Virus record (IMG/VR): IMGVR_UViG_3300046499_000512
From: an uncultured virus (IMG/VR IMGVR_UViG_3300046499_000512)
Taxonomy: Duplodnaviria; Heunggongvirae; Uroviricota; Caudoviricetes
Direction: 5' to 3' (one strand)
Length of the DNA stretch: 63,993 bases
Shown here in pieces: positions 31,909 to 62,842 of this stretch. Positions within the stretch are counted from its first letter, which is position 1. Every line of letters starts with the position of its first letter. A program made the translations under genes and the position numbers. The notes below the pieces were generated by a model. That model saw only the letters and a list, made by a program, of their open reading frames with translations, had not been told where the DNA came from and did not search any database.

Positions 31909-32130
31909 TCAGGCGCCTGCGGGAACCTTCGCGGCGCGACGGGCCTTGAACGCGGCCTTGGCCACCGCGAACGCGGCGGGCAGGGCCGACAGCAGGGCCG
32001 CCTTGGTGGCGGCGACATCATGCAGGTTGGTGACGTCGGCCAGCTCCAGGCCGACGAACACCTGGACGTAGGTAGCGCTGGTGCGCTCCGCTAAGTCCTT
32101 CAGGAACTCACGGTTCAGGTACTTCTCCAC
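31909..32130 (-). CDS. Holin (r1t-like); one TTA
   Basis: FLKDLAERTSATYVQ plus hydrophobic helices and basic tail. Confidence 0.75.
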   Translation of the reverse strand: MEKYLNREFLKDLAERTSATYVQVFVGLELADVTNLHDVAATKAALLSALPAAFAVAKAAFKARRAAKVPAGA

Positions 32131-32166
32131 AGGGTGCCTCTCACTCTGCTTGCGACACGGGGCCGC

Positions 32167-32742
32167 TTACCAGCCCCGCTGAACAGGGATCCGCACGATG
32201 AACCCCGGGGGGACGTCTGCGGCTGAGGGGTGGCCGTGAAGGCGGGCGATGCGGTCGGCGTCCTTGTTGGAAGGCGCGATCCATCCGCAGGCCCGCATGA
32301 GGAGCCGTAGCGGGAGCCCGGGAAAGACGGTGGCCGCCTGGTACGGAATCTCGCCCTCGGGGCGCTTGATCGGCGGCGGGAATGCCTCGGGGGCGTACAC
32401 CTGGTAGGCATCGGTGGCGTACTGGGGCCACATCTTGAGCCCGTTCATGTACGTCAGGGCGACGGCGGCCAGGCACTGGTTGGTGAAGCTCTCCAGGAGG
32501 TATTCGCGGTCGCGCGGGGTGCCGTGGCCGGTGGCTTCGGGCCGTACGGGGATCTGGAAGCAGCCGACGCGTTCCCGGTCGTCCTGGACGGTGATCAGGT
32601 CGGGCTGGGCCTCTCCCTGGGTGCCGGAGGCGGCGAGGGCGACGGCGGCGAGGGTCTCGGCGGTGTCGGGGTGCTGCCAGGTGCCGCTGCGTGCTCCGGC
32701 AGCGATGAGGGCCTGCCGGAGCTGTGCACGGTTGACTCGCAT
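32167..32742 (-). CDS. Lysozyme-like (SLT-type) domain plus LysM-like domain; catalytic Glu apparently missing
   Basis: AVALAASG (usually AxAxAESG), GCFQI, W..Y...AY; C-terminal VFPG.PL...IARL.G...PG..VRIP. Confidence 0.6.
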   Translation of the reverse strand: MRVNRAQLRQALIAAGARSGTWQHPDTAETLAAVALAASGTQGEAQPDLITVQDDRERVGCFQIPVRPEATGHGTPRDREYLLESFTNQCLAAVALTYMNGLKMWPQYATDAYQVYAPEAFPPPIKRPEGEIPYQAATVFPGLPLRLLMRACGWIAPSNKDADRIARLHGHPSAADVPPGFIVRIPVQRGW

Positions 32743-33122
32743 CAGTCGCCCGGTGCTGCGGGGACGTTCACCGGCTCGTCGTCGGTGAGGGTCCACAGCA
32801 GGGCCTCCAGTTCCGGAGGGGTCCCGTGTGAGGGGTTCACCGCGTTGCGCCGCATGTCGGAGCGGAGGTCCAGAATGTGCCGGAGGGCCAGCCGAAGTAA
32901 CCGTTCCACCTTGATCGTCTTCGCTTCCTGGGCTTCTTGGCGCTCCTCGAACTCTTCCATCCGCTCTTGGTACGCCTTTTTGAAGATCTCGAATTCGCTG
33001 CTGTTGAGCTTCCGGTCTTCCGTCGTCTTCGTGTTACGGGATGCGAACCGGGATCCACCTAACACGCATAAGCTCCCGACAATTGCCGCCCCGGCGGTAA
33101 CGAGGCTATCCATACCACTCAC
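32742..33122 (-). CDS. Lysis-cassette membrane protein (TM plus coiled coil); 3 TTA
   Basis: N-terminal hydrophobic helix, coiled coil, PPEL end. Confidence 0.7.
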   Translation of the reverse strand: MSGMDSLVTAGAAIVGSLCVLGGSRFASRNTKTTEDRKLNSSEFEIFKKAYQERMEEFEERQEAQEAKTIKVERLLRLALRHILDLRSDMRRNAVNPSHGTPPELEALLWTLTDDEPVNVPAAPGD

Positions 33123-33195
33123 TTGATGTGCCTCTCGGGAACTGAAACCGGCCTTACCAGATCATAACAAAGTGGGCCATTTCGGAAGAATAGCT

Positions 33196-33474
33196 TTAGC
33201 CCTCCGGGGCCTGCTCTTCCACGACCGTCCAGGACCGCGTCCCGTTTTCCACGACGACGACGTTGGCTTCGGTCACCCACGAAAGTCCCCCGCACGCCTT
33301 TTGCAGCGCGTCGCACAGCTCATCCGTCTGGGCCGGGGTCAGCAGGTAGTTCGTGGAGAGCTGGCCGGTGACGGCGGACCCGTCGGTACCTGCCACGGCG
33401 TAGCTCAACCGCACTTCCGAGGAGGCCGGGTTGTAGCTTCCCGAGCCTCCGGCGTAGTTACGTACCAAACTCAT
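33196..33474 (-). CDS. Hypothetical protein (possible tail-fibre chaperone)
   Basis: RBS AAGGAG; follows tail fibre. Confidence 0.65.
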   Translation of the reverse strand: MSLVRNYAGGSGSYNPASSEVRLSYAVAGTDGSAVTGQLSTNYLLTPAQTDELCDALQKACGGLSWVTEANVVVVENGTRSWTVVEEQAPEG

Positions 33475-33489: not shown

Positions 33490-34452
33490 TCACAGGATTT
33501 CTGCGCTGCCGGTGAGCCGGATAACGGAACCCGACCCCCATGTGCCGCCGCCCGGAATAGCCGAGCTGCCTATTACGGCAATGGCCGTGTTGGTGGCGCT
33601 GGTCGGTGCATAGAGAGACATGTTTCCGGTGCCGTCGCCTGCGGGCTGCGCGACCAGCGGATATCGTCCGCCGGTCACGGAAACAATTCCGGTGATCTGC
33701 TGGCTGGATCCGGAGGTGGAGAAAACCCACGGAACGCCGATGGTGTAGGTACCGGATCCGAACGTCGTGGACGCGGTGAAAGCCATCCACAGAGAGAAGT
33801 TGACCGTCTTGCCGGAGATGGCGAACCGCACGTTCGCCGTCCCTGTGCCCAGGGACGGGTTCGTGGTGGGGGCCGTCCACGTGATCGCGGTGCTCTGCGT
33901 CCAGGCGGAATAGCCTATGGTCTGCCAGGCGGTGCCGTCGTGGATCTGATCGGCTTTCAGGTCCGTGCGGTAGCAGCGGTCCCCGTTCACCGGGGAGGGG
34001 AACCCTGCGTCCCTGGCTGCCTGTGACGCGAACCGGGCGATGATCAGAGGGTCCAGCTTGGCGGCGAGGGCCTGCTCCAGCGGGTCCGCCGTGTTGTACG
34101 GCAGGGCGGCCTTGGTCGTGAAGCTCGGGGCTGCGGCATCCGCCGTGCGCTGCACCGCGATGGCCCGCGTAGCCGCCAGGTCAACCGCCTTGGGGGGTAA
34201 CGCCCACCGGATGCCGCCGCCGAAATCCAGCCACAGGGTGCCGATGTAGTTGTCGGGCCCGAAGAACGCCACCTGCCCGTAGGCATCGGAGGTCACAGAG
34301 CTGATCGCGGCTCCGGCCAGGGTCTGGAGATCCGTGATCGGGGAACCGCCGGTGCGCGAGTTGTAGACGCCCGCCGCCGCGTTGGCGTAGGGGAGACCCG
34401 TGGGCCGGACGACCTCTCCGTCTCCGCCTGCTCCGTACAGGTATCGCGCCAT
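33490..34452 (-). CDS. Tail fibre / receptor-binding protein A
   Basis: N-terminal about 165 aa paralogous to 34452-35519; beta-rich C-terminal head; one TTA. Confidence 0.75.
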   Translation of the reverse strand: MARYLYGAGGDGEVVRPTGLPYANAAAGVYNSRTGGSPITDLQTLAGAAISSVTSDAYGQVAFFGPDNYIGTLWLDFGGGIRWALPPKAVDLAATRAIAVQRTADAAAPSFTTKAALPYNTADPLEQALAAKLDPLIIARFASQAARDAGFPSPVNGDRCYRTDLKADQIHDGTAWQTIGYSAWTQSTAITWTAPTTNPSLGTGTANVRFAISGKTVNFSLWMAFTASTTFGSGTYTIGVPWVFSTSGSSQQITGIVSVTGGRYPLVAQPAGDGTGNMSLYAPTSATNTAIAVIGSSAIPGGGTWGSGSVIRLTGSAEIL

Positions 34453-35532: not shown

Positions 35533-36171
35533 CTATGCGCCCGGCAGCACGAGACCGTCGAGGCCGACCCAGGACGTCTGTACGCCACTTCCCATGAACA
35601 CGACGATGTTTCCGCTGGCCGTGACGGAGATCTTGGCGGTTCCGGGAGGTGAACTCGTACCGGATACCGAGATGGTGGAGGCACCCTCGTAGAAGGGCTG
35701 GACGCTACTGACGGCGACTGCTGCCGGGAGGGTTCCGAGCGTGGTATTGCTCGGAATGTTCGAGCTGTTTATGGTGCCGATGTTTCCCCAGAGTGCCCAC
35801 GTATTCGCCCCCGAGTTGTAGACGGCGATGGGGTTCTTGCCGTTGGCGGCCTGGAAGCCGTCGGACAGGTTGATGGCGACGGGGACCGGGGCGACGGGGG
35901 CGGTCCAGACGGCCGACCAGACGGACGTTCCGACGTCGGAGGTCTTCACGTATACACCGGTCACCACGGTTGTGCCGCTGTTGCGGACCACGCAGATGAC
36001 GCCTGACGGGGCGTTGAAGAACTTGCTGTCCCGGTCGGCTGTCGAGGTGGCCGCGAGGACTAATCGTCCGTCCATGGCGGCCACTAACTGGGATAACCAG
36101 TAGGGCACGTCGTTGGTCCCGGCACTGTCCGGTATCGGTAGTCCCGAGAATGCGCTGTACGTTGCTCCCAC
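35533..36171 (-). CDS. Minor tail protein; 3 TTA
   Basis: Position and composition. Confidence 0.7.
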   Translation of the reverse strand: MGATYSAFSGLPIPDSAGTNDVPYWLSQLVAAMDGRLVLAATSTADRDSKFFNAPSGVICVVRNSGTTVVTGVYVKTSDVGTSVWSAVWTAPVAPVPVAINLSDGFQAANGKNPIAVYNSGANTWALWGNIGTINSSNIPSNTTLGTLPAAVAVSSVQPFYEGASTISVSGTSSPPGTAKISVTASGNIVVFMGSGVQTSWVGLDGLVLPGA

Positions 36172-36208
36172 GGATTTCCCCTCCTTTACTGTCGATCAAC
36201 TATACCGA

Positions 36209-36970
36209 CTAAATCGCCCGGAAACCGCCCGAGACCTTGCTGAAAATCACGTAGCTGGCGTTCGCCGTGGTCAGGGTTGTGGGCTGTATCGCGAAGCCCT
36301 TGATGGTGGGTGTGACCGCCGTAATAGCCGTCCACCAGTCTGCCGGGATGGGGATAGTGCGAACCTCGCCCACTTCCAGTCGGAAGAACACGGGGCTGAA
36401 GGAATTCGTTCCCAGCGTGAGTACGGTCGGGAGCGCGTTGAAGTTGTGCGGGCACAGTTGTAATTCGACGGCTTCCCGCTGACCGTGCAGGACGCTGTTG
36501 CGGGCGACGGTGACGGTCATGGACGTCTTGGTCGTGCCGTTCGCGGGAAGGGCGTTCGTGGTGCCGTTGTAGTACGACCAGGCCAGCATGCCGGGACTGT
36601 CGCCGGGGGCGTCCGTGACGCCCACGTAGCCCTCGTAGCCAGGGTCGGAGGAGCCCCGGGCGCGCATGGTCTTCATGTCGTAGACGGCCCAGCCGTTGTT
36701 CTGGGTCGCGGGGGCGAGCCAACTGGAGTCGGTACCGCCGATGCGGCCGACGACCAGCCAGGCGTTGCGGCCGAGGTCCAGTACCTGCACCACGTCGCCG
36801 ATCCTGCGGTTGGTGTAGGACGCCAGGCAGGGGACGCCGAAGATCTGCGCGGTTCCGTAGCGCAGGTTGACCATGCCGTCTTCGCGGTAGGCCGAGACCG
36901 TGGCGCGGAGTGTGCGGACGCCGCTGTCGTTGGCGGTGAGCTTGGCGAGGAGGTTCGCGGCATCAGACAT
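36209..36970 (-). CDS. Minor tail protein
   Basis: OB-like N-terminus (PCLASY...GDVV); RBS CAGGAG. Confidence 0.7.
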   Translation of the reverse strand: MSDAANLLAKLTANDSGVRTLRATVSAYREDGMVNLRYGTAQIFGVPCLASYTNRRIGDVVQVLDLGRNAWLVVGRIGGTDSSWLAPATQNNGWAVYDMKTMRARGSSDPGYEGYVGVTDAPGDSPGMLAWSYYNGTTNALPANGTTKTSMTVTVARNSVLHGQREAVELQLCPHNFNALPTVLTLGTNSFSPVFFRLEVGEVRTIPIPADWWTAITAVTPTIKGFAIQPTTLTTANASYVIFSKVSGGFRAI

Positions 36971-38111
36971 GGACGGTGATCTCCTGCTTCGTGCTGCGGG
37001 TCGTGTAGGAGACGGCTCCGGAGCCCCACGTGTAGCTGATGGCGTCCACGAGGTGGCGTTCCTGGCGGCCGTCGAGGCGGCTGACCACGATGACGTCTCC
37101 GGCTTCCTGGGCGGGGTGGTAGCGGCCGGTGAGGCTGAGGGTCTTGGACTCGCCCACGAGGTCATCGAGGATGGCCTTGCCGACTCGCCACGCCTGCTGG
37201 TCGTTGACGATCAGCGGGGAGTCGTACCGGTAGGGCTTCACTCCGAAGTGCCCGGCCAGTTCCGGGTGGTTGATGGGGTCGGGGCCTGCGTAGGTCTTGG
37301 AGGCGGGGTCGTCGTCCCATACGAAGATCGGGCCGATCGGGGCGGATCCGTCTGCTGCTGCGCCGGTGATGGATACCAGGTTGTAGACGTTGGCCCGGTC
37401 GTAGGCGAACGCTGATGCGATCTTGGTCCTTGTGCCCTCCAGGACGGTCCACACGGGGTCGTCTGCCAGAGAAGGTCGCCGGACAAAGGCGAAGGCTCCG
37501 GAGGCGTCACAGAGGGCGTCAGCGCCCAGCGCGGTGGCAATGGAGGCGTCGCTCGCCGTGCCGTGCACGACCGACCAGCGGTCCGTGTCCACGGTCATGG
37601 CCACCATCGCGGCGGTGGAGGCCAGCCGGGAGTCCCAGGTGAACCGGGCGTCCGGGACAGCCTCTGTGATCAGCTTCTCCGCCTGCCTGCGGTACGTCGA
37701 GTACCGGTTGTCCGGCAGGTTCCTTGCCACAGGGAACTGTGCGTCGATGACGTCCTGCTCGAAGGAGATTCCGTCGATCGTCAGGTTGTTGACGCTCTCC
37801 GTGATCGCGGTGACGGAGTACAGGCCTGCCGGGATGTACTCGGGGGAGGATCCGAGGAAGCTCACGGCCATCCGCAGGCGCAGACGGCAGCCGTACGGGT
37901 GGATTCCTTCGTATCCGACGGTGACCGTCTTGGCGATGGTGGCGCCCAGCGCCCAGCGGGCTGTGCTGGTGCGGTCCTGCGTGTGGCTCCCGGAGATGAT
38001 CTCCAGCGGGTACCAGTTCTTCCAGTCCGGGGACCAGTCCAGGACCGGCTGGATCTGTAAGGCCGTGCCGTCGGACAGGGCCCGCGTGAGGCGCTCGGAG
38101 TGGGTGAGCAT
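36963..38111 (-). CDS. Minor tail protein (DUF5047-like baseplate hub)
   Basis: Position after Dit-like gene; YNLV...G, FG.KP..YDSPLI. Confidence 0.75.
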   Translation of the reverse strand: MLTHSERLTRALSDGTALQIQPVLDWSPDWKNWYPLEIISGSHTQDRTSTARWALGATIAKTVTVGYEGIHPYGCRLRLRMAVSFLGSSPEYIPAGLYSVTAITESVNNLTIDGISFEQDVIDAQFPVARNLPDNRYSTYRRQAEKLITEAVPDARFTWDSRLASTAAMVAMTVDTDRWSVVHGTASDASIATALGADALCDASGAFAFVRRPSLADDPVWTVLEGTRTKIASAFAYDRANVYNLVSITGAAADGSAPIGPIFVWDDDPASKTYAGPDPINHPELAGHFGVKPYRYDSPLIVNDQQAWRVGKAILDDLVGESKTLSLTGRYHPAQEAGDVIVVSRLDGRQERHLVDAISYTWGSGAVSYTTRSTKQEITVHV

Positions 38112-39451
38112 CAGATGTTCTCCATGCTCACCGCGTCAAAGTAGGCCTGCTGGCCCGCTGCTGTCGCCGTGACGACGACGTTGCAGATGGCTAAGGACGT
38201 CCCGGGCGGGGGCGTCACCGACAGAACGACCTTCGTCCAGGTCAGGGGGGTCAGGGTGACGGTGCGGCCCCACTCCGACAGGGAGTCCGTGGTGAGGTAG
38301 TTGCCTGCCCCGTCCAGCCAGTCGACCAGCAGGTCGGTTACCAGTCCGGTGGCCGAGTTCACCCACATCGAGTAGGTGTAGGTGAGGCCCGGGGTCACCC
38401 GGTACTGCGGGATGCCGGTGGCGCCGATCAGTCCGGCGGCGGTCGCGGTGAGACGGCGGGAGTAGGCGCCCCGGAACGGCAGGGCGGTGGTGCGCAGGAT
38501 CGTCGTGTTGCCGTTGTAGGAGTTCCAGCCGTTGCCGGGGGCGGAGCCGGACTCGCCCTCGGAGGTGTAGGCGTCCATCATGTTGCCGCCCTGGATGGCA
38601 TCGAACGGCAGCGGCAGCAGGTCGGAGAACAGGGGGGCCTGCGCGGTGGACGCGGCGAACGTGAAGGTCGGGGTCGCCACGGTCTGCCCGTAGGTGTTGG
38701 GGCGGCTGACCTCGATGAGTCCCAACTGCCACAGGTACACGCCCCGGCCGGTGCTCGCGGACTGCGCGGCGTAGGAGACGTCGTCCACGGTGAAATAGCC
38801 GTCGGGGCGTTCCCACAGCGACGACTTGCGCATGATCACGGTCTGGTTCAGCAGCTTCTGCATGGCGAGGAATTCGGCCTGGCCCACCGTCAGCACGGAT
38901 ATGGACGTGCCCAGTCCGTTGCGGGTGTCCGGGGTGACTACGGGGTAGGGGCTGCCCAGGACGGTCTGCTTGTCGTTGCGGCCGTTGTAGCTGCCGCCCA
39001 GCGTGGACGTGCCCCGGGCCTGGATGGAGGCGCTGGGGTCTTCCAGGTTGACCAGCCACATGTCGGGGGACATGTAGCCGCCTGTCGGGGCGGAGGTGGT
39101 GATGGCCGCCGAGGCGGACTGCTGCGCGAGGGCGCCCGTCGAGTCGACCGGGACCGCGTAGTAGGAGACCGCCTGTCCCAGGGGGGCTTCCTGGTCGTAC
39201 AGCCAGCCCTTGCCCGAGTAGTTCAGGTAGGGGTCTCCCCCGCGCACGGTGTGCACAGTGCCGTCCGCGTTCTCCCGGTAGACGGTGCACCGGAATGGGC
39301 TGGACCAGGAGGACAGGTCCAGGCTGTAGTCGAGCTTGATCCGGACGCCGCCGAACTTGGGGTCGTCAATCGCCCGGACCCGTCCGTCGAAAGAGGTCGC
39401 ATCAACCGTCGTGGACGAAACCGGGGAGGCTACAGGGACTACAACCGGCAT
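38111..39451 (-). CDS. Distal tail-like protein with C-terminal carbohydrate-binding module
   Basis: Follows tape measure; VRGG...YDQEAPLG motif; VTPGLTYTYSMWV CBM-like end. Confidence 0.7.
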   Translation of the reverse strand: MPVVVPVASPVSSTTVDATSFDGRVRAIDDPKFGGVRIKLDYSLDLSSWSSPFRCTVYRENADGTVHTVRGGDPYLNYSGKGWLYDQEAPLGQAVSYYAVPVDSTGALAQQSASAAITTSAPTGGYMSPDMWLVNLEDPSASIQARGTSTLGGSYNGRNDKQTVLGSPYPVVTPDTRNGLGTSISVLTVGQAEFLAMQKLLNQTVIMRKSSLWERPDGYFTVDDVSYAAQSASTGRGVYLWQLGLIEVSRPNTYGQTVATPTFTFAASTAQAPLFSDLLPLPFDAIQGGNMMDAYTSEGESGSAPGNGWNSYNGNTTILRTTALPFRGAYSRRLTATAAGLIGATGIPQYRVTPGLTYTYSMWVNSATGLVTDLLVDWLDGAGNYLTTDSLSEWGRTVTLTPLTWTKVVLSVTPPPGTSLAICNVVVTATAAGQQAYFDAVSMENI

Positions 39452-39452
39452 G

Positions 39453-42400
39453 TCACTTCTTCTTTCCTGCAACCGCCACGATCTCGGACACCTTTTCCTC
39501 CACGACCTTTTCCGTGTGGGCCCGGAACTTCTTGCCGTCGATGTTCACCATAATGGTATGCGGTGCGGTGACCGTTATCTTTGCCCCGGCCAGAGCCTTC
39601 GACTGCTTCTTCAGCGTGCTCAGTCCGAAGCCGTCGTCGGCGGCGGAATCCGCGTACTTCCCGGAAACCGTTTCCAGCTCCTTGTACGTGTCATTGAGCT
39701 TTTTCAGGTCGGCGGACGAAGAGGAGCGGGCCAGGGACTGGGCGAGCTGCCCGCCCTGCTCCGGACCCATGGCCGCGATCTGCTGGATGAGGGCCTGGGA
39801 CATGCCGAGCTTGGCCAGCGTGTGAAGGTTGACCTGGAAGTCCTTGATGGCCTTGATCTTCGCCTGGAGCTGCTGCGTGAACCCGGCGGCCCGGTTGCCG
39901 GACAGACCCGACAGGGCGCCGGTCTGCATCGCGGCGTCCTTGTAGGAGTTCCGGGCGTCGGTCGCAACGGCGATCTTCGCGTCGATCGCAGCCTTCTTGC
40001 CCGCAATGTAATCCTGGGCCGCCTTGCGCTCCTTCGAGATTTCCGCGTCCCGGGCCTTTTTCTTTGCGGCGGCGAGAGTCGCAGCGTCCTTGCGCTCCTG
40101 CTCCACAGCCTTCGAGGCGTTCTTGTAACGCTTCTCGTTCAGCTTGATCAGCTTGGTGTCGGAAGCTATTTCCTTGTTGGCCTTGTCGATCTGCTTGTCG
40201 TACTTGGCCATTTCCTTCTTTGCGGCGGCCTGCTCCTTGGCGGTCGTCGCGTGCAGGTACTTCGTGTGCGCGGCGTCGTACTTCTTCTGCGCCGCGTCAC
40301 GACGGGCCCTGTCCCTGTCGCGCTCTTCGAAGGCCTCGCGGACGACGTGGCGCTGGTGCCGGGTGCCGGTGCCCGAGGCGTACCCGTGCAGGCTGCCCAT
40401 GGAGGCCATGTGCAGGGAGTCCTTGTGGTTGTAGACGGTCTCCCCGCCGTGGAAGTTGACCAGCTCGGGGCCGCGTTCGCCGACCCAGGCCAGGCCGGAG
40501 GCGGCTCCGTTGGTACCCGTCCAGTAGCCCTTCGGGGCCTTGTTGGCGTTGGCCTGCTGAACGTTGTTGATGTTGCCGTACCTCGCCACGATGTACCTGA
40601 TCGCGGCCGCTACGTTGGCGACGGGGTCGGTGATGGAGCGGTCGGCGAGGGCCGCCGGGACGTAGGCGTGGAACGTGCCCGGGATCGTCTGCGCGAGGCC
40701 CTGGGACGGGTGCCCTGCCTTGGCGTTGGAGTCGGTCAAGTTGATCGCGTTCGAGTTCCAGCCGCTCTCGCGCGTGATCAACGTGTTGAGACCGGCCTGC
40801 CAGGCGCCCTTGGTCCCGGGCGGGGGGACGTTGGCGTACCGCATGGCCGCGTTGATGATGGCCAGGTGGCGTCCCTCGGGGATCTTCCCGCCGACGGCCA
40901 GGGCCTTCTTGTCCTCGCGGTTGACCCAGCCCTTGATGTCCTCCAGCGGCTTTTTCATGACGCCGCCTGCGAGGTTGCTCCAGGCGCCGCTGCCCGGGAC
41001 GATCTTGTCGATGGCGCCTTCGGCCTTGTTGATGACCGGGTTGACGATGGCAGCCAGCGCGCCGAGCGCGGCGTCTTCCAGGGCGTCCAGGCCCTTGTTC
41101 GCTGCGTTCTTGAGGCCGTCGCCCACGTCCGAGATCCAGCCGCCCACGCCGAACCGGCCCGTGGTGTTGGCGCCCATGACGGGGCGTCCGCCGTGCAGGG
41201 AGGACCGGAACGCCTGGACGGCGTGGTGACCGCCCATGGCCGCGACGTCCTCGCGGGTGAACACGTGCTCGTCCGGCATCAGGACCGCGTTGACGGAGTC
41301 CTTGCCCGGACGGGATCCGGCGGTGTGCGGGACGGGGCCACCGGCTGCGAAGTGGGGGATCTTGTCGGTGTTGATCTTGCCCAGCGGGTTGTCCTGGTGG
41401 ACGAAGCTGGAGATCTTGTCCATGATCTTCCAGATGGCGTCATTCCAGACATACTTCGCAACCCAGTAGATCGGGGTACCAATCGCCTTCTTGACGTTGT
41501 CCCAGACCTTCTGAATGCCCTTCCACGCCGAATCGAAGGCCTCAACCAGGCCCTTCTTCATCGTCGTTCCCCAGCCGGGGATGGTCTTGGTGAAGAACGT
41601 GCCCATCGGGGAGAACACGTTGTTCTTGATGGCCCGCCACTTGTCCCCGATCCAGTCCTGGATGCTCTGGAACACCGGCTTGATGGAGCCCTGCCACAGG
41701 TTCCGCGCCGCACCCGACACGGCGTCCCAGGCGGGCTTGAGGATGTGGTTGTTGACCCACTTGAAGCCGTTGGCCATCGCGCGCCAGCCGTCGCCGATCC
41801 AGCCGAAGACCGGACCCAGCGTGTGATCCCACACAGCCTTTCCTGCCGAGGCGAAGGCGTCCCAGGCAGGCTTCAGGATGTGGCCGACGACCCACTTGAA
41901 GCCCGTCCCCAGGGCGTGCCAGCCGTCCGAGATCCAGCCCAGCACGGGCTTGATCCCGAACACCCACAGCGCCTTGATCGCGGCCTCGAACAGGATGAAG
42001 ATGACCTTGAAAATCGTTTCGTGGACCTTCCACCACACCTTGGCCACGGTCACGAACGCGTCACCGATGGCGACGAAGACCGGCTTGATGTAGCCCCACA
42101 GCCACGCGGCCCCGGCGACGATGGCGCTCCAGACGCCCTTGATCGTCCCCCAGACCTTGGTCCAGTTGGCAGCGATCCAGGCGATGGCACCGATCGGGCC
42201 GAGCAGGAGCGCGAGCAGGCCGAACTTGCCCCGCAGGAACTCCACCGTGGCGTTGAAAGCAGTTTTGATCCCGCCCCACACCATGTGCCAAAGCTGCTGG
42301 AACCAGGTGGTCTTCGTCGCGATGATCACAATGACCGCGACCAGTGCCACGATGCCCGCGATGATCACACCGAGCGGGCTGAGACCCCACGCGATCGTCA

Positions 42401-44968: not shown

Positions 44969-45029
44969 GGTGTTGTAGTCCTTCTCGCTGTGCCGGGTGA
45001 ATAGTTCGATCTGAGGGATCACGTGGCCC

Positions 45030-52646: not shown

Positions 52647-52648
52647 CG

Positions 52649-55353: not shown

Positions 55354-58300
55354 TTACGGAACCAGTTCAACCACGATGTGACGAACTTTCTTTCCGTGGT
55401 AGACCGACGTCGTGTCCTCGATGACCTTGAACTTGCTCTCCCGGTTCAGCAGAACCTCGTGCTCCCCGGAGTTGTCCGAGCCCGTCGTGTGGTTCAGGTC
55501 CAGCACCTTCGACCCCTTCGGCAGGCGGATCTCCATGTGCGTGTCACCGGACCATACGTCGCGGGTCTTCGACGTGGAGTTGTACCCGTGGTCGACGTAC
55601 ACCTCACCGGGCTTCATCGGAGGCGCCGGGGGCACCGTCGGGAACGGTCCGCCGCCGTTCATCTTGCGGGAAACGATGACGTTCCGGTCCAGCGGCGGCA
55701 CCTCACCGAACACCTTGTCCATGTGCGCGATGACGTCGTCCCACTTGCCGCCCGTGGTACCGAACGGCGCGATGCCCTTCTTCTTGTCGCCCCGGAGCTG
55801 CTGGTTGATCCCCGTGTAGTTGTTCGTGGAGTAGATGTAGGGCCCGGAGCCGGAACCGGTGTCCGCCGGGTCAGGGTGCCAGTCCCCGTGGAGGTTCTGG
55901 TTGAACGACATCGACCGGTAACCGGCGTCGAAGGATCCCTGGGACCACTGGTGCTTGGTGATGTCCGCCAGCGCGGTGCGGTCCAGCGTGCCCTGGCCGT
56001 CGTAGGAGCCTTCCGCCGGGTTGTACGGCTTGAAGCCCTGGAAGCCCGCGAAGACCTTCTTCTTCGGCGCCCCGAACTGCGGGTTCGTGTTGCTGCCCAT
56101 CGGCGGGTTCTGGCCCAGGGCAAACACCTTGTCCGGGTTGAACGGGCCGGTGGAGTGCTTCTTGACCCAGGCGTCCTGAGCCTTGGCGTACTCCGCCTTG
56201 TCCGCCGCCGTGGCGTTCGGGCCCATTGACTGCGCATACAGCTTCTTGAGGAGCTGGGCGTTGTCGTACTTGTTGTTCGTCAGGCCGGTGAACATGACGT
56301 GCGGCGCCGACGGGGCTGCCGAAGCCGCCGCGTCCGGGTTGAGACCCAGGGCCTTGAGGTACGTCTTCGGCTTGTGGGCCGCAGCGGTGATCTCCTCTGC
56401 GGTCGCACCGGCAGCCTTGGCCGCCTGCTTCAGATCCGCGTCCTTGTCGTAGTCCCAGTCGTCGCCGTTGTCCGGCAGGTTGTGTTCGGCCAGTAGCTGG
56501 AGAGCGAACTTCTTGCTGCCCGCGTCCGACGCGCCGGAGGGCGCGTTGTGCGCGTTCAGCTCCGCCTGCGCCTCCTTGTTCCACTGGCTGTTGGCGACGT
56601 GCGCCTTGAACTGGGCGGCATCCGCCGGGTTCGCGGCCATCCACGCCTTGTGGGACTCAGTCGTGATCGCCTTGGACGAGCCGTGGTTCTTGGCCATCCA
56701 CTCGGCCGCCAGCTTGGCTTCCTTCTGCGTCTTGAACGCCTTGCCCATGGTCAGGCCGTCGGCAGAGGAGACGTGCCAGCCGGAGCCGTTGATCTTCTTG
56801 TGGACGACCAGGCCCTTCGGGCCCTGCACGACCGGGTGCTCCTCCGTCTCCCCGTTCCCGTTCTTGAGTCCCTTGAGTCCCTTGGTCCACTTGGCCTTCG
56901 GCTTGAACGGGTCCACGGCGGGCTTCGACGGAGCCGCCGGAGTCACCTGGGCCTTGGGGGGTTCCGGAGTCGCCTTGGGGGCGTTGCCGCCGCCCGTGGT
57001 GTGCGCGGCCCCGGTCTCCTCCTTGGTGGTCAGCTCCGCGAGCACTTCGGCAGACTTGTGGGCCGCCTTCATGATCTCGTTGTCGTCTGCCCCGGCCGCC
57101 TTCGCGTCCTGCTCCAGCTTGTTGGCCTTGTCGTACGACCACGCCCCGTCGTTCTTGGGGTGCTCGTGCTCGGCGATGGCCTTGAGAGCCTTCTCCTTCG
57201 CGGACAGACCCCCGGAAGGCTGCGGCTCAAGGTACTTGTCTGCGTTGTGCAGAACGTCCTTGATGTCCGTCATCGTCGCGCCAGCGTCCAGCGCGTCCTG
57301 CTTGAGCTTCTTGTAGTCGGTCGGCGCCCAGTCGGTGTCGTCGGACTGCATGTGCTCGGCCAGCGCCTTCAGCGCGGCAGCCTTCTTCTCAGGAGAGACT
57401 CCTCCCGGGTTGGCAGCCTTGGCCGCAGCCGACTTGCTCGACAGGTCGGCCACGAACTTGTCCGGGTCGTCCAGCGCCGCATTGATCTCGGCCTGCGTCG
57501 CCCCCAGAGCCTTCGCCTTGTCCTTCAGCTCGTTGGAGGTGTCAGGTTCCCAGTTCTCGTCGTTGGCCGGGGAGTTGTGCTCTGCGAACGCCTTGAGCGC
57601 CGTGTCCTTCTGGCTCAGACCCGAGGTGGGCTTGCCCTTCTTGGCGGCCATCTTGCCCGCCTGGTGCGCTGCGTGGATCTCCGACAGGGAAGCCCCGGCA
57701 TCCTTGGCCTTCTGGACCTGCGAACTGACCACCGACGGGTTGCCCTTGGCGTTCTCCGTGATGTCCTTCAGCGCGGAGGCCTTGGCGTCCCCGTCGGCCT
57801 TGGCTCCGGCCTTCGCGGAGTCCGGGAGCCCGTTGTACAGCTTCTGGAACTCGTCACCGATCTTGTTCTTGTGCGCGGCGATGTCGTCCAGGAAGTCGTC
57901 CACGGTCTTTCCGCCGGGAAGCTGCCCGTTCTGCTGGGCGTGCTCGGCGTACGGCCGGAAGAGCTTCTTGAACTCTTCGTCCGGCATGTCCTGGATCGCC
58001 TTGATGGTGTCGGCGAAGCTGTTGTTCCCCTGCGGGTCGGGGAGCTTGACATGACCGGCCTTCGCCGCGTTCCACAGCTTCGGGTACACCGGGACGTCCG
58101 CACCCAGCGGCGGGTACGTCTTCGTCGGGTCCGCGTGCGTGCCGTACTTGAACGCCTGCCCCTGGTCGACCTGGACCAGCTTGCCGTCAGCCGTGCGCAG
58201 CCACTGGCCGCTGTGCGTGTCCTGGTTGCCCGTCGCGGAGTCCATGACCTGGTGCTGGAGCATGGAGAGGATGTCGGCCTCGGACAGCTTCGTCGGGTCG

Positions 58301-60624
58301 AAACTGCCGTTGGGGAAGGCGTCCTTGGAGCCAGGCAGCATGCCCTGGAGGTGCCCGTCCTTCGTCTTGACGAAGATCGGGGTGTCCATGCCGACCATGC
58401 GGTGCAGCTTGGCGATGGCCGGGTCCAGCGTGCGGGAGTACTCGTCCTGCTTGACCAGCCACTCGTTCCCGGCTTCGTCCTTCATCAGCTTGTTGTCGTG
58501 CGAGCCGAGAGTCTGGCCCGTGGGAGTCAGCTTGCCGACCGGCTTGAGCGGAAGCCCGTTCTCGGACGTCGCCGCCGCCGGGGCCTTGACCGACGGCGGG
58601 TTCTTGACCTCGGCCGCCTGCTTGGTCGTGAGCGCGTCGGCGGAATTGCCGTGGTGCGTCATCTGGAACTTGTACTTGTTCAGGACACTCTGGTCAGGGG
58701 CGGCCTTCTGGATCTCCGACCCGAGGGCCTTGGCCGCCGCCGTACCGGCCGCCTGGTGGTCTTCCTTCGTGTTGGTGATCTCCGCCAGGTCACTCAGGGC
58801 GTTGACCATCAGGGAGGTGTGACCGCCCTCCTCGGCGACCTTCGCAGCCTCCTTGGCCTTCTGCGCGGCAAGCTCCGGATTCCCGGCCTTCATCGCGTCG
58901 TCGGCCTCGTTCAGCAGGTCACCCGCCTGCATGAGCTTGGCCTTCTTGTCCTCCTTGGCCTTCAGCTCCGCATCGTGAGCAGCGGCGAGCTTCTTGGCCT
59001 CGGCGGCGTGCCCCTTGGCAGCCTCCGTGTGGTCATCCGCCACACCCGTCCAGCCCGCCTTGTGCGCCGCCTCGGCTGCGTCCAAGTGAGCGCCGCCCGC
59101 GTCCAGGTGAAGGCCGCTGAGCTGCTGGGGAGTCGCGTTGCCCTCGTACTTGGCGTTGTGCGCCGCCTCGGTGGCGCTGTGCGCCTTCACCGAGGCAGAG
59201 GAGGCAGCAGACTCAGCCTTCTTCTTCTCCTCGGCGTGCTTGACGACGTCGTTGCCGACCTGCACCGACTGGTTCTGGTGCTTGATGATGGCCTCGTTGT
59301 GGGCCTGCACCAGGTCGGTGTCGCCCGCAGCCTTGGCGGCGATCTTCGCCTTCAGGTGCGCCTTGGCCGCCTTGAGGTGAGCGTCCTGGGCGTCCGCCGT
59401 CGCTCCTGCCCCGCCAGCCGAACCGGGCGTCTTCCAGGCACCCTCGGAGACCTTCCAGGCTTCGTCGGAGATCTTGTCGGCCTCCGCCTGCGCCTTGGCC
59501 TTGGCCTCCTGCTCCTTGTCGTGCTGCGCCGTGAGGTTGGCAGCCTCCGCCTGGTGCCCCATCTTCTGCGTCAGGTGCGCCTGGTGGGCGTCCGTCTGAC
59601 CGATGCTCTGGTGCATGTTGGCGGCCTGGCCGTGCGCGTCGGCAGCCTGCTTGTGCGCGTGGATCTGGGAGGGGAGGTTGTCGCCCTCCTCCTGCGCGAT
59701 CTTCGCGGCCTTGGACGACTTCTCGGCCTGCGCCGACAGGTTGTCCGCCGCCGAAGCCAGGGAGTCGTGCGCGGCCTGCTGCTTCTCGGCGATGCCCTCG
59801 TGCTTGCCGACCGCCTGGCCGTGCGCCTCGGCGAGGAACTTGTTCCCGGCCGCCTCGTTGGCCGTCTTCGCGTCCGCGTGAGCCTTCGCCGCCTTCTGGT
59901 GCAGCTCGGCCGCCTGCTTCGGCGAGTGGCTGCCGCCCTTGAGCGACGCGGTGAGTTCGTTGGCCCCGTCCGTCAGCTTCTTGGCGTGCGCCTTCGCGGC
60001 GACCTTCTCCGCTTCGAGCTTCGCCGCCTTCTCGACCTTGGCTTCCTGACCGAGCTTGTCGGCCTTGGAGGCGTGGATCGCGGAGTGCGCGGAGTGCGTC
60101 AGGACCGCAGACTTCAGACCGCCCTTGCCCATGGCCTGGAAGTGGGGGACAGCGTCCGCGTGGGCCTTGGAGGCGACGGCGTGGGCGGCTGCCTGGACGT
60201 CCTTGGAGGCACCGGAGGCCGCGAGCTTCTCAGCCGCGTTCGTGGCCGACTCAGCCTTCTGGACGGCTGCCTTCGCCGCCTCCTGTTTGGCGACGACTCC
60301 GGCCGCGCCCTTCTTGACCGCGTTCTCCCAGTCCGCCTTGGAGGCGTACCGGTCGACGGCCTTGAAGGACATCTTGCCGTCGGCACCCTTGATGAAGTGG
60401 CCGGTCGTGTGACCGCCGGAGATGTGGCCGTGCTGCCGGGCCAGACCGCCGCCGGACAGACCCCGGGACGGAATCAGCGGGTTGATCAGAATCCAGCCGT
60501 GCTTGTAGCGGAAGGCCAGGGCACCGGCGGGGTTCTTCGAGAAATCCAGGGTGTGCGGGTCAACGACCCTCACGTTCTTCGGCAGCGTCCCGACGAACGC
60601 TAACTCGTACTCCTGCGTGTTCAC
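55354..60624 (-). CDS. Polyvalent virion-associated protein: His/Ala repeats, HipA/PI3K-like kinase domain, helical repeats, C-terminal ADP-ribosyltransferase
   Basis: WLVK...NQDTHSGQW...VDQGQAF; YTGINQQLR...VSR...GYNSTS...EHEVLL (R-S-ExE clade). Confidence 0.85.
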   Translation of the reverse strand: MNTQEYELAFVGTLPKNVRVVDPHTLDFSKNPAGALAFRYKHGWILINPLIPSRGLSGGGLARQHGHISGGHTTGHFIKGADGKMSFKAVDRYASKADWENAVKKGAAGVVAKQEAAKAAVQKAESATNAAEKLAASGASKDVQAAAHAVASKAHADAVPHFQAMGKGGLKSAVLTHSAHSAIHASKADKLGQEAKVEKAAKLEAEKVAAKAHAKKLTDGANELTASLKGGSHSPKQAAELHQKAAKAHADAKTANEAAGNKFLAEAHGQAVGKHEGIAEKQQAAHDSLASAADNLSAQAEKSSKAAKIAQEEGDNLPSQIHAHKQAADAHGQAANMHQSIGQTDAHQAHLTQKMGHQAEAANLTAQHDKEQEAKAKAQAEADKISDEAWKVSEGAWKTPGSAGGAGATADAQDAHLKAAKAHLKAKIAAKAAGDTDLVQAHNEAIIKHQNQSVQVGNDVVKHAEEKKKAESAASSASVKAHSATEAAHNAKYEGNATPQQLSGLHLDAGGAHLDAAEAAHKAGWTGVADDHTEAAKGHAAEAKKLAAAHDAELKAKEDKKAKLMQAGDLLNEADDAMKAGNPELAAQKAKEAAKVAEEGGHTSLMVNALSDLAEITNTKEDHQAAGTAAAKALGSEIQKAAPDQSVLNKYKFQMTHHGNSADALTTKQAAEVKNPPSVKAPAAATSENGLPLKPVGKLTPTGQTLGSHDNKLMKDEAGNEWLVKQDEYSRTLDPAIAKLHRMVGMDTPIFVKTKDGHLQGMLPGSKDAFPNGSFDPTKLSEADILSMLQHQVMDSATGNQDTHSGQWLRTADGKLVQVDQGQAFKYGTHADPTKTYPPLGADVPVYPKLWNAAKAGHVKLPDPQGNNSFADTIKAIQDMPDEEFKKLFRPYAEHAQQNGQLPGGKTVDDFLDDIAAHKNKIGDEFQKLYNGLPDSAKAGAKADGDAKASALKDITENAKGNPSVVSSQVQKAKDAGASLSEIHAAHQAGKMAAKKGKPTSGLSQKDTALKAFAEHNSPANDENWEPDTSNELKDKAKALGATQAEINAALDDPDKFVADLSSKSAAAKAANPGGVSPEKKAAALKALAEHMQSDDTDWAPTDYKKLKQDALDAGATMTDIKDVLHNADKYLEPQPSGGLSAKEKALKAIAEHEHPKNDGAWSYDKANKLEQDAKAAGADDNEIMKAAHKSAEVLAELTTKEETGAAHTTGGGNAPKATPEPPKAQVTPAAPSKPAVDPFKPKAKWTKGLKGLKNGNGETEEHPVVQGPKGLVVHKKINGSGWHVSSADGLTMGKAFKTQKEAKLAAEWMAKNHGSSKAITTESHKAWMAANPADAAQFKAHVANSQWNKEAQAELNAHNAPSGASDAGSKKFALQLLAEHNLPDNGDDWDYDKDADLKQAAKAAGATAEEITAAAHKPKTYLKALGLNPDAAASAAPSAPHVMFTGLTNNKYDNAQLLKKLYAQSMGPNATAADKAEYAKAQDAWVKKHSTGPFNPDKVFALGQNPPMGSNTNPQFGAPKKKVFAGFQGFKPYNPAEGSYDGQGTLDRTALADITKHQWSQGSFDAGYRSMSFNQNLHGDWHPDPADTGSGSGPYIYSTNNYTGINQQLRGDKKKGIAPFGTTGGKWDDVIAHMDKVFGEVPPLDRNVIVSRKMNGGGPFPTVPPAPPMKPGEVYVDHGYNSTSKTRDVWSGDTHMEIRLPKGSKVLDLNHTTGSDNSGEHEVLLNRESKFKVIEDTTSVYHGKKVRHIVVELVP

Positions 60625-61775
60625 TGCCCGCCCTTTCTGCGACCGTTACGCCGCTTCTTCTGCGCCTTGATCGCCGCATCCGCCAGGTAGCGCTTCGGAT
60701 ACTTCGTGGTCAGGCTGTTGACTGTGAGCCGTGCCCCGTCCTGGGAACTCCCGGTGGGTACGGTGACCTGCTCCGATGCCATGGGCTGGGACAGGTTGAC
60801 GTTGTTGCGCAGGTTGTCCGTCTGCTCGTCCTGCTGGGCGTCGTAGTGGTCCAGCAGCCGGACCTGGCTGGGGGTCAGAGGCCGTCCGGCCTTCTTGTCC
60901 GCGAGGGCCTGCTTGATGGCGGCGGCGACCAGCTTGCGGTGCTCGTTTAGCTTGGTCTTCGCCGCCTTGGCCTTCGCCGCAGCGGCCTTCTTGGCGGCCA
61001 TCGCCTTGGCGTGCTCTTCCCGCTTCTTGGTGGCTGCCTTCTTGGCGGCCAGCCTCTTCGCGGCGGCCTCGGCGCGCTTCTTGGCGGCTACGGCCCGGCG
61101 GGAGTTGGACTTGGCCTTGACGGCGGCCTTCTTGCCGTCGGCGGTGGCCTTGTTCTTGTACGCCTGGCGGATCGCGTCCTTGGTGGCCTCGGTGTGCCCG
61201 GCCATGTCCTTGATCTCGGAGGCGGATTTGTCCTTCTGGGAAGGGCCGACGGCCTGGCCGTTCTTGTCGACGGGGACCCAGTTGTGCTTCCAGCCCACGG
61301 CGCCCGGGGGCAGCTTGTGCTTGCCGTGCGGGTCTTCCTTCTTGGCCTTGTTGGCGGGCGGCTTCTTGTCCGTCTTCTGCGGCAGAGGCTCCGGCGCGAC
61401 GGCCAGGTCAACCACAGAGGAGCCGTCCAGGATGCCTCGCAGGAGTTCCATGGGCTGAGACAGCGTCACGTCGGATCCCTTGTTCGGGGTCGCGTGCGCC
61501 TTGGCCTTGGCGGATTCCCAGGCGGCTACGGCTGCCGTGGCGGCGGCCCTGACCTCGGGGCGGACGTTGCCCTGTCCCGCCGCCCAGTTCTTGACGGTGC
61601 CCAGGGCCACCTGGATGGCCTTGGACTTGTCCATCCCCCGCTCGGTCATCAGGCTGTGCGCGATGTTTTGCACGTAGGGCGGCAGGCTCAGGGAGCGGTC
61701 ACCGAATAAGCCCGGTCCCCCGGGCTTCCCTAACGGGTGCGGCGTGACTGCTAACGCCGCTGTCTCAGCACTCAT
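60621..61775 (-). CDS. Lys/Ala-rich basic head-module protein; 3 TTA in first 23 codons
   Basis: Histone H1-like AKK repeats; overlaps start of the ART gene. Confidence 0.75.
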   Translation of the reverse strand: MSAETAALAVTPHPLGKPGGPGLFGDRSLSLPPYVQNIAHSLMTERGMDKSKAIQVALGTVKNWAAGQGNVRPEVRAAATAAVAAWESAKAKAHATPNKGSDVTLSQPMELLRGILDGSSVVDLAVAPEPLPQKTDKKPPANKAKKEDPHGKHKLPPGAVGWKHNWVPVDKNGQAVGPSQKDKSASEIKDMAGHTEATKDAIRQAYKNKATADGKKAAVKAKSNSRRAVAAKKRAEAAAKRLAAKKAATKKREEHAKAMAAKKAAAAKAKAAKTKLNEHRKLVAAAIKQALADKKAGRPLTPSQVRLLDHYDAQQDEQTDNLRNNVNLSQPMASEQVTVPTGSSQDGARLTVNSLTTKYPKRYLADAAIKAQKKRRNGRRKGGQ

Positions 61776-61804
61776 GTCGTTTTCCTTCGCCGTGCCGGGT
61801 CAGC

Positions 61805-62128
61805 TCAGTGGAACGCGGCGAGCTTGATCGTGGCGACGGACGCGGTGACCTTCACGCTGTCGCCCGTGACGGAGTACGGGAAGTCGCTGGGGCACAGCAG
61901 GTAGAACGTGGTCGCGGCGAGCGTGTAGACCTTGTCGGGGACGACGACGCCGGTCGGCAGGGTGACGTTGGACTTGACGGTGAGCGTGCCGCCCGCCGCA
62001 CCTCCGTCGACGTAGAGCCAGGTGGCACCGTCGTTCTGGAACGTGTTGCCGGTGACGTCGGCGGCAGCGGTCGCGATGGACGCGATACCGATCGCGGAGG
62101 CGGAAACAACGTTTAAGGCGGTAGACAT
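61805..62128 (-). CDS. Small beta-rich virion protein; TTA at codon 5
   Basis: RBS GGGAG; upstream TTGACG-N18-TATCTG promoter (62197-62168). Confidence 0.7.
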   Translation of the reverse strand: MSTALNVVSASAIGIASIATAAADVTGNTFQNDGATWLYVDGGAAGGTLTVKSNVTLPTGVVVPDKVYTLAATTFYLLCPSDFPYSVTGDSVKVTASVATIKLAAFH

Positions 62129-62221
62129 GGATAGGTCTCCCTCACGTGAGTTTTCAGGCAGGCATGCCAGATACCAAACTACCGGTTTATCCGTCAATAA
62201 GGGAGGCTAGCACCCGGGGGA

Positions 62222-62842
62222 CTAATTCACGGAGAGATGTGCGGGCAGTGCGTCGACCACCCTTTTTCCGACATAGGCGGGGGTCGGGTAGCAGCGGCAG
62301 CGCGGGTGTCTTCCTCCGGGGTGGAGTCCTCCGGGTGGATTGTCTGCGCGGAAGTTCTTTCCGATTAGCCAGCGGCAGTCGGGGGTTGTCTTGTCGTCCA
62401 GGATTCCGCCCCAGCCGAGGAGCTGGCTGTGGGTGACGGCGGCCATTTTCTTGGAGGCTTTCGCTGCGGCGACGCGGCGGGCGCATGCCTGCTGGTGCTG
62501 GGCGAACAGGGCCTTTTCCCTGGTGAGGGCGGCCTGGAGGTTGTCGGCGGTGGCGAGGCGCTGGAGTGCGGCGAGGATGTAGAGGGCGCGGTAGCGCAGG
62601 TTGGCCCGGTGTGCGGCCATGACGGGGTCTTCGCCCTTGGGGTGGGCCTTTTTACCGGGCTTGTACTTCATGGCCGTGAGTAATCCGAGGGCGAGCTTTT
62701 TCGGGGTTTTCGTGGCCGCTGAAATAGCCTGTATCGCAACAATGAGGGGCGGCCCGGCCACTAAAATGGCCACGACCGCCGCGATCACCGCATCTTTCTG
62801 CGAAGAATCCTCTTGGGCCTTTTCCTGCGCTTGCTCGGACAT
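62222..62842 (-). CDS. MuF-like minor head protein
   Basis: W..ILDDKTTPDC...HPRCRC; 2 TTA. Confidence 0.85.
   Translation of the reverse strand: MSEQAQEKAQEDSSQKDAVIAAVVAILVAGPPLIVAIQAISAATKTPKKLALGLLTAMKYKPGKKAHPKGEDPVMAAHRANLRYRALYILAALQRLATADNLQAALTREKALFAQHQQACARRVAAAKASKKMAAVTHSQLLGWGGILDDKTTPDCRWLIGKNFRADNPPGGLHPGGRHPRCRCYPTPAYVGKRVVDALPAHLSVN

Follow-up and report, generated by a model that had tools for sequence, protein, structure and literature searches.

The window analysed here, a stretch of 63,993 nucleotides from an uncultured tailed virus (IMG/VR record IMGVR_UViG_3300046499_000512), belongs to a phage in which the leucine codon TTA, very rare among its otherwise G/C-ending codons, is concentrated in the genes for virion assembly and lysis. 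An earlier note made from the DNA alone had drawn attention to these codons and had proposed that they place the late genes under the control of the bldA transfer RNA (tRNA) of a Streptomyces host. Here we describe the genes that carry TTA and the statistics of the codon, follow it through related genomes, and weigh what its distribution may mean for the control of late protein synthesis.

TTA codons across the late block

The window has 65% G+C and a G+C content at third codon positions (GC3) of about 0.9, and nearly all of its genes lie on the minus strand. The codon-usage-based caller of this analysis predicted 88 genes, with 85 on the minus strand. Of these minus-strand genes, 29 fall in the late block (31909-63905), and the early block (1-31284) comprises 58 genes. 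Matches to PHROGs and Pfam revealed a siphovirus layout that runs from high to low coordinates, beginning at the head end with the portal gene (cut by the window end), the MuF-like gene, head genes and a 1756-aa protein with an ADP-ribosyltransferase domain, followed by the tailspike, a protease/scaffold-like gene, scaffold, capsid and connectors, and then by the major tail, chaperone, tape measure, minor tail and fibre genes. The lysis cassette closes the late block with the holin gene at 31909 as its last member, and beyond it the same matches identify a SNF2 helicase, an exonuclease, ThyX, a Sak4-like ATPase, PolA, a deaminase, a C1 peptidase and a primase/polymerase. The late open reading frames (ORFs) are intact under translation table 11, and all frames are open in the standard code.

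A megablast search with 8 kb of the window against isolated phages matched no close isolate; the nearest are the Marky-group Streptomyces phages, which are syntenic and share about 40% amino-acid identity in capsid and PolA. Closer relatives were found among uncultured genomes, with 22 IMG/VR contigs at 85-100% capsid identity and 73-99% nucleotide identity. One of these, G002, measures 124,939 bp and is rated 97% complete, so that the window corresponds to about half of a genome of ~125 kb. Sequencing runs that contain the window sequence are labelled as rhizosphere or soil metagenomes, and none of those listed is an RNA run.

The earlier note had counted 34 in-frame TTA codons in the late region, and our count is the same: 33 lie in 16 of the 29 late genes and one in an upstream open reading frame (uORF), with independent gene calls agreeing gene by gene. 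The figure of 33 uses the 126-aa start of a membrane protein in the lysis cassette and becomes 32 with the shorter start chosen by the caller. All of these genes are on the minus strand. At the head end, the MuF-like head protein gene (62222..62842; PF04233) has TTA at codons 27 (62762-62764) and 54 (62681-62683), the first of which is TTA in 5 of the 18 relatives that cover it. The adjoining 107-aa gene of the virion block (61805..62128) carries it at codon 5 (62114-62116), as do 17 of 17 covered relatives, and a 384-aa head-block gene (60621..61775) has it at codons 8, 15 and 23 (61752-4, 61731-3 and 61707-9); of 14 relatives, 13 have TTA at codon 8 and 9 have it at codon 15. The 1756-aa virion protein (55354..60624), whose C-terminal domain belongs to the ADP-ribosyltransferase exoenzymes (PF03496), has a single TTA at codon 8 (60601-60603). 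Four TTA codons (6, 8, 115 and 189) occur in the 529-aa protease/scaffold-like gene (49171..50760), where all 18 relatives have TTA at codon 115 and 17 of them also have it at codon 6, and the major capsid gene (47723..48637; phrog_1650) has one at codon 47 (48497-48499).

Towards the tail end, single TTA codons lie in the major tail gene (45030..45626; codon 33, 45528-45530), a label that the earlier note gave from gene order, and in the tail assembly chaperone-like gene (44579..45022; codon 81, 44780-44782), likewise labelled from gene order. The tape measure gene (39453..44213; tape measure PHROGs and PF01464) holds eight, all within codons 58-117 (43863-44042), such that TTA makes up 8 of the 18 leucine codons in its first 150 codons and none of the 99 in the remainder (P=6e-8). 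Four minor tail genes (35533..39451; tail PHROGs) contribute six more, at codon 420 of the gene at 38111-39451, codon 18 of that at 36963-38111, codon 170 of that at 36209-36970, and codons 26, 29 and 37 of that at 35533-36171; at codons 420 and 18, TTA is not kept in the few relatives that cover them. The series ends with a 320-aa fibre-like gene (33490..34452; codon 85, 34198-34200), the lysis-cassette membrane protein (32742..33122; three TTA codons in its 126-aa form and two in its 107-aa form) and the holin gene (31909..32130; PF16945 and phrog_443; codon 13, 32092-32094). Embedded in the late block on the plus strand is a primase/polymerase paralogue (53218..55038; phrog_5177) without TTA among its 58 leucine codons, which serves as an internal control.

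The remaining late TTA lies in a 14-codon uORF (52649..52693, minus strand; MQSDL...) at codon 5 (52679-52681). This uORF has its own AGGAG Shine-Dalgarno sequence, reads AGGAG-N8-ATG CAG AGC GAC TTA ... TGA, and stops 2 nt before the ATG of the tailspike-like gene directly behind it (50886..52646, minus strand; PF12708 and PF13229, pectate-lyase fold), which itself contains no TTA. The uORF with TTA at codon 5 recurs in four sequence groups (L001; L003, L006, L009 and L055; L007 and L008; L019), and in L014 codon 5 is instead AGA, another very rare codon. The arrangement suggests that translational coupling would carry the effect of the codon to a gene that has none, and it resembles that of adpA, which is preceded by a UUA-bearing uORF according to the available text of PMC10732093, in that the TTA-bearing uORF here likewise abuts the main start. 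Several GTTACCCC / GTTAC repeats, which may be regulator sites, also occur where the uORF and the plus-strand primase/polymerase gene diverge (52647-53217), chiefly at ~52930-53010.

In the early block TTA is confined to four codons in 4 of the 58 genes, all of them also listed in the earlier note. A 189-aa gene (19007..19576, minus strand) carries it at codon 5 (19562-19564), and TTA recurs at codon 5, codon 9 or codons 5 and 10 in 5 of 5 relatives. This gene had been called TerS-like, a label that found no support in PHROGs, Pfam, NCBIfam or PDB sequences. A papain-like C1 peptidase gene (13702..14529, minus strand; PF00112 and phrog_16701) has TTA at codon 4 (14518-14520), retained in the one relative that covers it, and a dCMP/cytidine deaminase gene (16622..17008, minus strand; PF00383) has it at codon 62 (16823-16825), retained in 2 of 2 relatives. 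The fourth is codon 8 of a 40-codon ORF (10060..10182, minus strand) of weak coding status (score 10.1). A further ORF that had been listed as TTA-bearing, at 16029-16355, does contain three TTA triplets, but its coding score of -43 and GC3 of 0.63 indicate that it is probably not a gene. Consistent with the earlier scan, the gene calls place no TTA in polA, the helicases, thyX, the exonuclease, SNF2 or the genes at 1-5 kb.

Codon statistics and maintenance in relatives

The counts proposed in the earlier note as a check reveal a clear difference between the blocks. TTA accounts for 32 of 739 leucine codons in late genes and 4 of 724 in early genes (Fisher odds ratio (OR) 8.1, P=1.5e-6), and a comparison by gene, with 16 of 29 late against 4 of 58 early genes carrying TTA, gives P=1.3e-6. 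The difference persists when the tape measure gene is left out (24/622 late leucine codons against the 4 early TTA codons, P=2.2e-5). The position bias that the earlier note had described is equally evident, with TTA making up 13 of 69 leucine codons in late codons 2-30 and 19 of 670 further in (P=1.1e-6). Late genes exceed early genes in both zones, however, both within codons 2-30 (OR 12.4, P=1.5e-5) and past codon 30 (19/670 against 1/559, OR 16.3, P=1.2e-4).

The excess is specific to this codon and to its reading frame. When 30 A/T-ending codons were tested one by one, TTA was the sole strong outlier in both zones; AGA, ATA, CTA, AAA and GTA showed no late enrichment, and CCT, ATT, GCT and GGT rose slightly in the late block. 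Among the leucine codons of late genes, TTA is commoner than TTG, CTA or CTT. The blocks have equal GC3 (0.887 and 0.893) and A-ending codons are less frequent in the late than in the early block (5.3% against 6.6%), on which grounds we reject a general enrichment of A/T at third positions or a foreign late block. Late genes contain 32 TTA triplets in frame, compared with 6 and 8 in the two shifted frames, and the codons that flank TTA are ordinary G/C-ending ones without a common motif; the in-frame excess and unshared flanks led us to reject a motif at the DNA level, and TTA specificity together with the late excess past codon 30 led us to reject a generic 5' ramp. The earlier note had named local enrichment of A/T-ending codons at gene starts among the findings that would refute its proposal, and this enrichment fails to account for the codons because their excess is specific to TTA and present beyond the 5' ends of genes. 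The trend for the sister codon TTG runs opposite to that of TTA, with 27 of 722 leucine codons in early and 14 of 739 in late genes (P=0.04), and with 50 of 843 in the left-arm genes of relatives.

Comparison with relatives, likewise among the checks that had been proposed, revealed that TTA stays with the same genes but shifts its sites among genomes of 73-99% nucleotide identity. The same genes are TTA-bearing in all lineages, and the scaffold, the connectors and all sampled replication genes are always TTA-free. All 22 relatives have at least one TTA in the capsid gene, at codon 47 in 18 of them and at codon 17 in L018-L021. For the major tail gene the site in relatives is codon 33, with codon 102 in its place in L011-L013; for the chaperone gene it is codon 81, replaced by codon 64 in L017-L020. 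Across the clade the tape measure gene has 3-8 TTA codons, with 3-6 in the relatives, which shift in site but with few exceptions fall within codons 14-144. In a codon alignment of 15 more divergent loci, TTA sites align with leucine codons in 142 of 155 cells, and the codon is therefore read as leucine.

The contrast between regions also extends through the clade. Most late-region loci of the relatives have TTA at 2-5% of leucine codons, compared with 0-1% at five early-region loci (8/1191 summed), and the genes that immediately precede the late block upstream lack TTA altogether among 843 leucine codons (64 gene calls from 11 relatives, which are pooled and non-independent). Relative L038, which is 100% identical to the window over the portal part, supplies the genes cut off by the window end: its terminase large subunit gene (phrog_2) carries one TTA at codon 16, a site also found in L039 and L054, and its full portal gene has one at codon 6. 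Outside the clade the pattern fades, with no TTA in 5 of 7 loci from more distant capsid relatives (32-43% identity) and none in the 73 coding sequences in the first 50 kb of Streptomyces phage Marky. Together, the distribution of the codon and its maintenance across lineages indicate that selection maintains TTA in the genes with which this clade packages its DNA, builds heads and tails and lyses the host, and keeps replication and other non-virion genes free of it.

Decoding of UUA and competing explanations

Which tRNA reads these codons is central to their interpretation. No tRNA gene was found in the window, and a covariance-model search detected exactly one in each of the relatives G002, G003 and G004 and in three smaller records. 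The gene lies ~9 kb upstream of portal on the opposite strand, outside the window. In all seven loci that reach this site (L039:1012-1087, L040, L042, L045, L051, L052 and L054) ARAGORN and an Rfam alignment agree on the anticodon CAA, which reads UUG by standard rules. Two tRNA(CAA) bodies occur, one 76 nt long that lacks a long variable arm and one 83 nt long that has such an arm; both keep an invariant T-CAA loop, with compensatory changes in their stems. A clade with TTA-rich late genes thus encodes a tRNA for the sister codon UUG only. A tRNA-Leu(UAA), for which the earlier note had asked the full genome to be searched, was found neither in the window nor in the searched relatives, the 97%-complete G002 included; nor was a TilS-like ATP_bind_3 domain found in G002-G004, or a suppressor tRNA in the window or in G002-G004. 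With CAA as the only anticodon of the clade and no UAA, decoding of UUA falls, on present evidence, to a host tRNA.

The host is likely to be Streptomyces-like, judging from sequence similarity. All 13 phage records matched by one tail protein are Streptomyces phages (13/13), the top 15 matches of the tailspike are Streptomyces phages from several unrelated clusters, and a 5' positional bias of TTA is described for streptomycetes and not for other actinobacteria in the part of PMC4255298 available to us. Several features expected of a bldA-type gene set are present, namely in-frame leucine TTA at a GC3 of 0.89, growth-type genes that are nearly free of it, and the bias towards gene starts.

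We consider it moderately probable that late-protein synthesis is throttled by charged host tRNA-Leu(UAA), bldA if the host is a streptomycete, and that virion output and lysis are thereby coupled to the state of the host. Early genes would be translated whatever the level of this tRNA, whereas on late messages, which have UUA early in most of their ORFs, ribosomes would queue if the charged tRNA were scarce, and a ribosome stalled at an early UUA would prevent further initiation on the same message. All virion modules, and lysis with them, would then rise and fall in output with the level of one tRNA, and the uORF would hand the same control on to the tailspike gene. In a streptomycete, where this tRNA is that of bldA, virion production would be tied to the growth or developmental state of the host; the abundance and maturation of the bldA tRNA increase with development, as described in the available portions of PMC4255298 and PMC10732093. 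We infer the limitation by tRNA, the Streptomyces-like host, and the direction and purpose of the coupling from these patterns. The developmental lock of the earlier note, with replication in vegetative hyphae and virions only once the host develops, and with it the link to bldA, may be one form of such coupling; the outcome may be delayed lysis in young hyphae, triggering at the onset of development or a guard on lysogens. More tentatively, and with less than even confidence, we can imagine that the whole rhizosphere clade of ~125-kb genomes has made all its packaging, virion and lysis genes and at least one leader uORF dependent on bldA, while keeping a tRNA of its own only for UUG, such that host physiology read through one tRNA would decide the timing of assembly and lysis.

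A number of observations weigh against throttling by a host tRNA. Thirteen of the 29 late genes lack TTA, the scaffold and connector genes among them, four early-block genes carry it, and the early and late classes were assigned from gene function and annotation. Strict per-site conservation of TTA exceeds that of other rare codons only modestly (mean 0.56 against 0.41, P=0.03), with P=0.059 when the comparison is restricted to rare leucine codons, and the signal is therefore one of TTA being kept in particular genes more than at particular sites. The window covers about half of the genome, and tRNA content beyond it is known from relatives alone. The extent to which translation in young hyphae is held back by the bldA tRNA is a matter of debate. 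The case for a Streptomyces-like host draws on isolates of ~40% identity and on homologues of tail proteins, and further host searches did not discriminate: ThyX homologues (73 loci at 50-64% identity) are spread across Streptomyces, Cellulomonas, Rathayibacter, Microbacteriaceae, Actinoplanes and others; the phage tRNA DNA matched five actinobacterial genomes only over the T-arm and acceptor (27-31 nt); and the tailspike protein gave 11 weak N-terminal matches among 401 genomes of the class. No attB was found among 401 Streptomyces genomes when the region upstream of the recombinase of relatives was used as query; this search returned weak matches in 42 genomes, the best and most numerous on a G+C-rich hairpin and the rest short and elsewhere in the query.

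Of the competing explanations, host-independent translational tuning deserves the most attention, although we regard it as unlikely. TTA would here be the slowest codon, placed to create pauses or a 5' ramp in the service of folding, assembly order, stoichiometry or weak structure at the start. The strong 5' bias of TTA (13/69 against 19/670) fits this, as do the roughly 1.9-fold rise of other A/T-ending codons in late codons 2-30 (0.191 against 0.102), the confinement of the tape measure cluster to one N-terminal segment, and the fact that TTA is the most A/T-rich leucine codon. Against such tuning stand the lack of late enrichment in the other very rare codons AGA, ATA, CTA, AAA and GTA and the presence of 19 late TTA codons past codon 30, against one in early genes. 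Early genes need good initiation too, yet avoid TTA, and the syntenic phage Marky does without any. High-copy products (capsid, major tail) and low-copy ones (terminase, portal) are both encoded by TTA-bearing genes, and thus no stoichiometric logic is visible. Chance, mutation bias or a late block acquired from a foreign source is next to negligible as an explanation: tandem clusters, such as the eight codons in the tape measure gene, do swell the raw counts, but the enrichment is significant without that gene (P=2.2e-5) and by gene (P=1.3e-6), GC3 is equal and A-ending codons are fewer in the late block, the in-frame count of 32 stands against 6 and 8, and TTA is maintained with relocation in several lineages.

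Two further explanations retain a regulatory role for UUA. If the clade is temperate, the late TTA codons might serve a lock linked to lysogeny, silencing leaky transcripts in vegetative lysogens or biasing the choice between lysis and lysogeny, with the same tRNA dependence and another purpose; we judge this quite improbable. A tyrosine recombinase is encoded 31-36 kb upstream of portal in G002 (L139:790-1854) and G003 (L140:399-1376), a conserved region rich in ACTAGT/TAGTAG repeats lies upstream of it, and the terminase UUA of phiHau3 has been proposed as a lytic/lysogenic sensor in the available text of PMC10732093. The recombinase may, however, resolve dimers instead, the attachment-site search in the 401 Streptomyces genomes gave no attP/attB match and only terminator-like hairpins, and no repressor was identified. 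Annotation of the nearest isolates suggests a lytic lifestyle, without an integrase among the 74 features listed, and the polarity in phiHau3 is the opposite one, its terminase being made when the tRNA is absent. A timer run by the phage itself, which would supply UUA decoding through an unsampled tRNA or a tRNA(CAA) whose modified anticodon could read A, appears highly improbable. Late genes would in that case await a phage product, much as in phages with recoded stop codons and suppressor tRNAs of their own. That every relative reaching the site has exactly one tRNA, a member of the UUR-leucine box with an anticodon loop invariant in two bodies, would suit such a timer, as would the position of the gene ~9 kb upstream of portal in a leftward, presumably early gene group and the presence of a gene with a cytidine/dCMP deaminase fold. 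That deaminase gene adjoins thyX-type genes of nucleotide metabolism, however, and the anticodon is CAA in 7 of 7 loci, which by standard rules reads UUG. TTG is used in early (27/722), left-arm (50/843) and late (14/739) genes, which explains the tRNA(CAA) without any link to TTA, and neither a second tRNA in the 97%-complete G002 nor a TilS-like domain in G002-G004 was found.

Known systems and further features of the window

Throttling of late genes by a host tRNA would have counterparts in other phages that use codons to set late genes apart. Late genes of crAss-like and Lak phages contain in-frame stop codons and are accompanied by suppressor tRNAs, an early/late codon split that could gate late translation much as proposed here. 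In our clade the codon is a sense codon, the frames are open in the standard code and no cognate phage tRNA was found; stop-codon recoding itself is ruled out, as the late ORFs are intact under table 11 and no suppressor tRNA was found. Cowe and Sharp reportedly described in 1991 the matching of phage tRNAs to late-gene codons of the T4 type. Codon usage varies with the time of expression in both cases, but here a single codon is involved and the sole tRNA (CAA) is non-cognate; a cognate tRNA of the T4 type was sought, and the window has no tRNA and the relatives only CAA.

The bldA/TTA regulon of Streptomyces is closer in kind. As here, in-frame leucine TTA is very rare among G/C-ending codons and marks one functional class, and it is biased to gene starts and retained across relatives, according to the available text of PMC4255298, which gives 147 chromosomal TTA genes for S. 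coelicolor. The genes of the present case differ in being viral and in their far higher density of TTA, which is carried by 55% of the late genes with up to eight codons per gene, and their dependence on bldA is putative. Phages have appeared in this context before. UUA is reported in 1.91% of genes across 161 Streptomyces phages, whose genomes are usually without it, in the accessible part of PMC10732093. The same source describes, after Smith et al. 2013, the phages phiHau3 and StrepC.1, in which a UUA in the terminase gene heads frame-breaking inserts of 10 nt and bypassing without the tRNA was proposed. Those phages share with ours a UUA in an essential late gene, and sensing of host state through the bldA tRNA was proposed for them; they differ in that sense TTA codons occur here in intact frames across the late regulon, with the terminase of L038 forming one ORF of 570 aa. 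Bypassing of the phiHau3 type is ruled out, as all TTA codons lie in continuous frames and the L038 terminase ORF is unbroken. With ordinary sense codons in intact frames, protein is expected when the tRNA is present, unlike in phiHau3. Streptomyces phage CW39 has in-frame TTA in 9 of 208 genes (two HNH endonucleases and seven hypothetical), for which a link to bldA was suggested (PMC13350457, in part); unlike the present analysis, the portions of that paper available to us report no late-gene pattern, statistics or conservation.

Our literature search found no report of TTA enrichment across the late genes of a phage, although the supplements of PMC10732093, which concern clusters of UUA genes, were outside its scope and could bear on this; it found nothing on phage plaques with bldA mutants, and the Streptomyces phage genome papers that were checked for TTA, bldA, UUA or 'rare codon' made no mention of them. 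What is new is thus the spread of TTA across a phage late regulon, since control through bldA and TTA and the proposal for the phiHau3 terminase were already known. If the late genes of the whole clade do depend on bldA, the clade would parallel the stop-codon recoding of late genes with a sense codon, and a virus would for the first time be seen to use bldA across a whole regulon. TTA and bldA form a classic and still debated case of regulation by a single tRNA, and phages have so far contributed one odd terminase and a few anecdotal counts. The clade provides internal controls (the early genes, the embedded non-virion gene and the left-arm genes), relocated codons and a uORF for reporter tests of tRNA limitation. 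Phages that time their lytic output by host development would matter for soil phage ecology and for contamination of Streptomyces fermentations, and codon censuses are a possible clue to the host and lifestyle of uncultured actinophages.

Several other features of the window were observed. In the lysis cassette, a 191-aa protein (32167-32742, minus strand) that lacks both TTA and a homologue in isolated phages has a weak lysozyme-like SLT_3 match under the Pfam cut-off and may be the endolysin. The primase/polymerase within the late block forms a paralogous pair (phrog_5177) with a second gene, the two lying at 53218-55038 on the plus strand and 6146-7963 on the minus strand. Coding potential is low at 14530-16355 and 4931-6145, stretches that include several gaps of 400-1200 nt. 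In the relatives G002-G004, neither a WhiB domain nor an AraC-type HTH_18 domain was detected. The 1756-aa ADP-ribosyltransferase protein has a shorter counterpart at the same place in the Marky group, and a 52-aa protein at 11541-11699 (minus strand) matches the RecBCD-inhibitor family of T7 gp5.9 (PF25708, E=2e-16), here in an actinophage.

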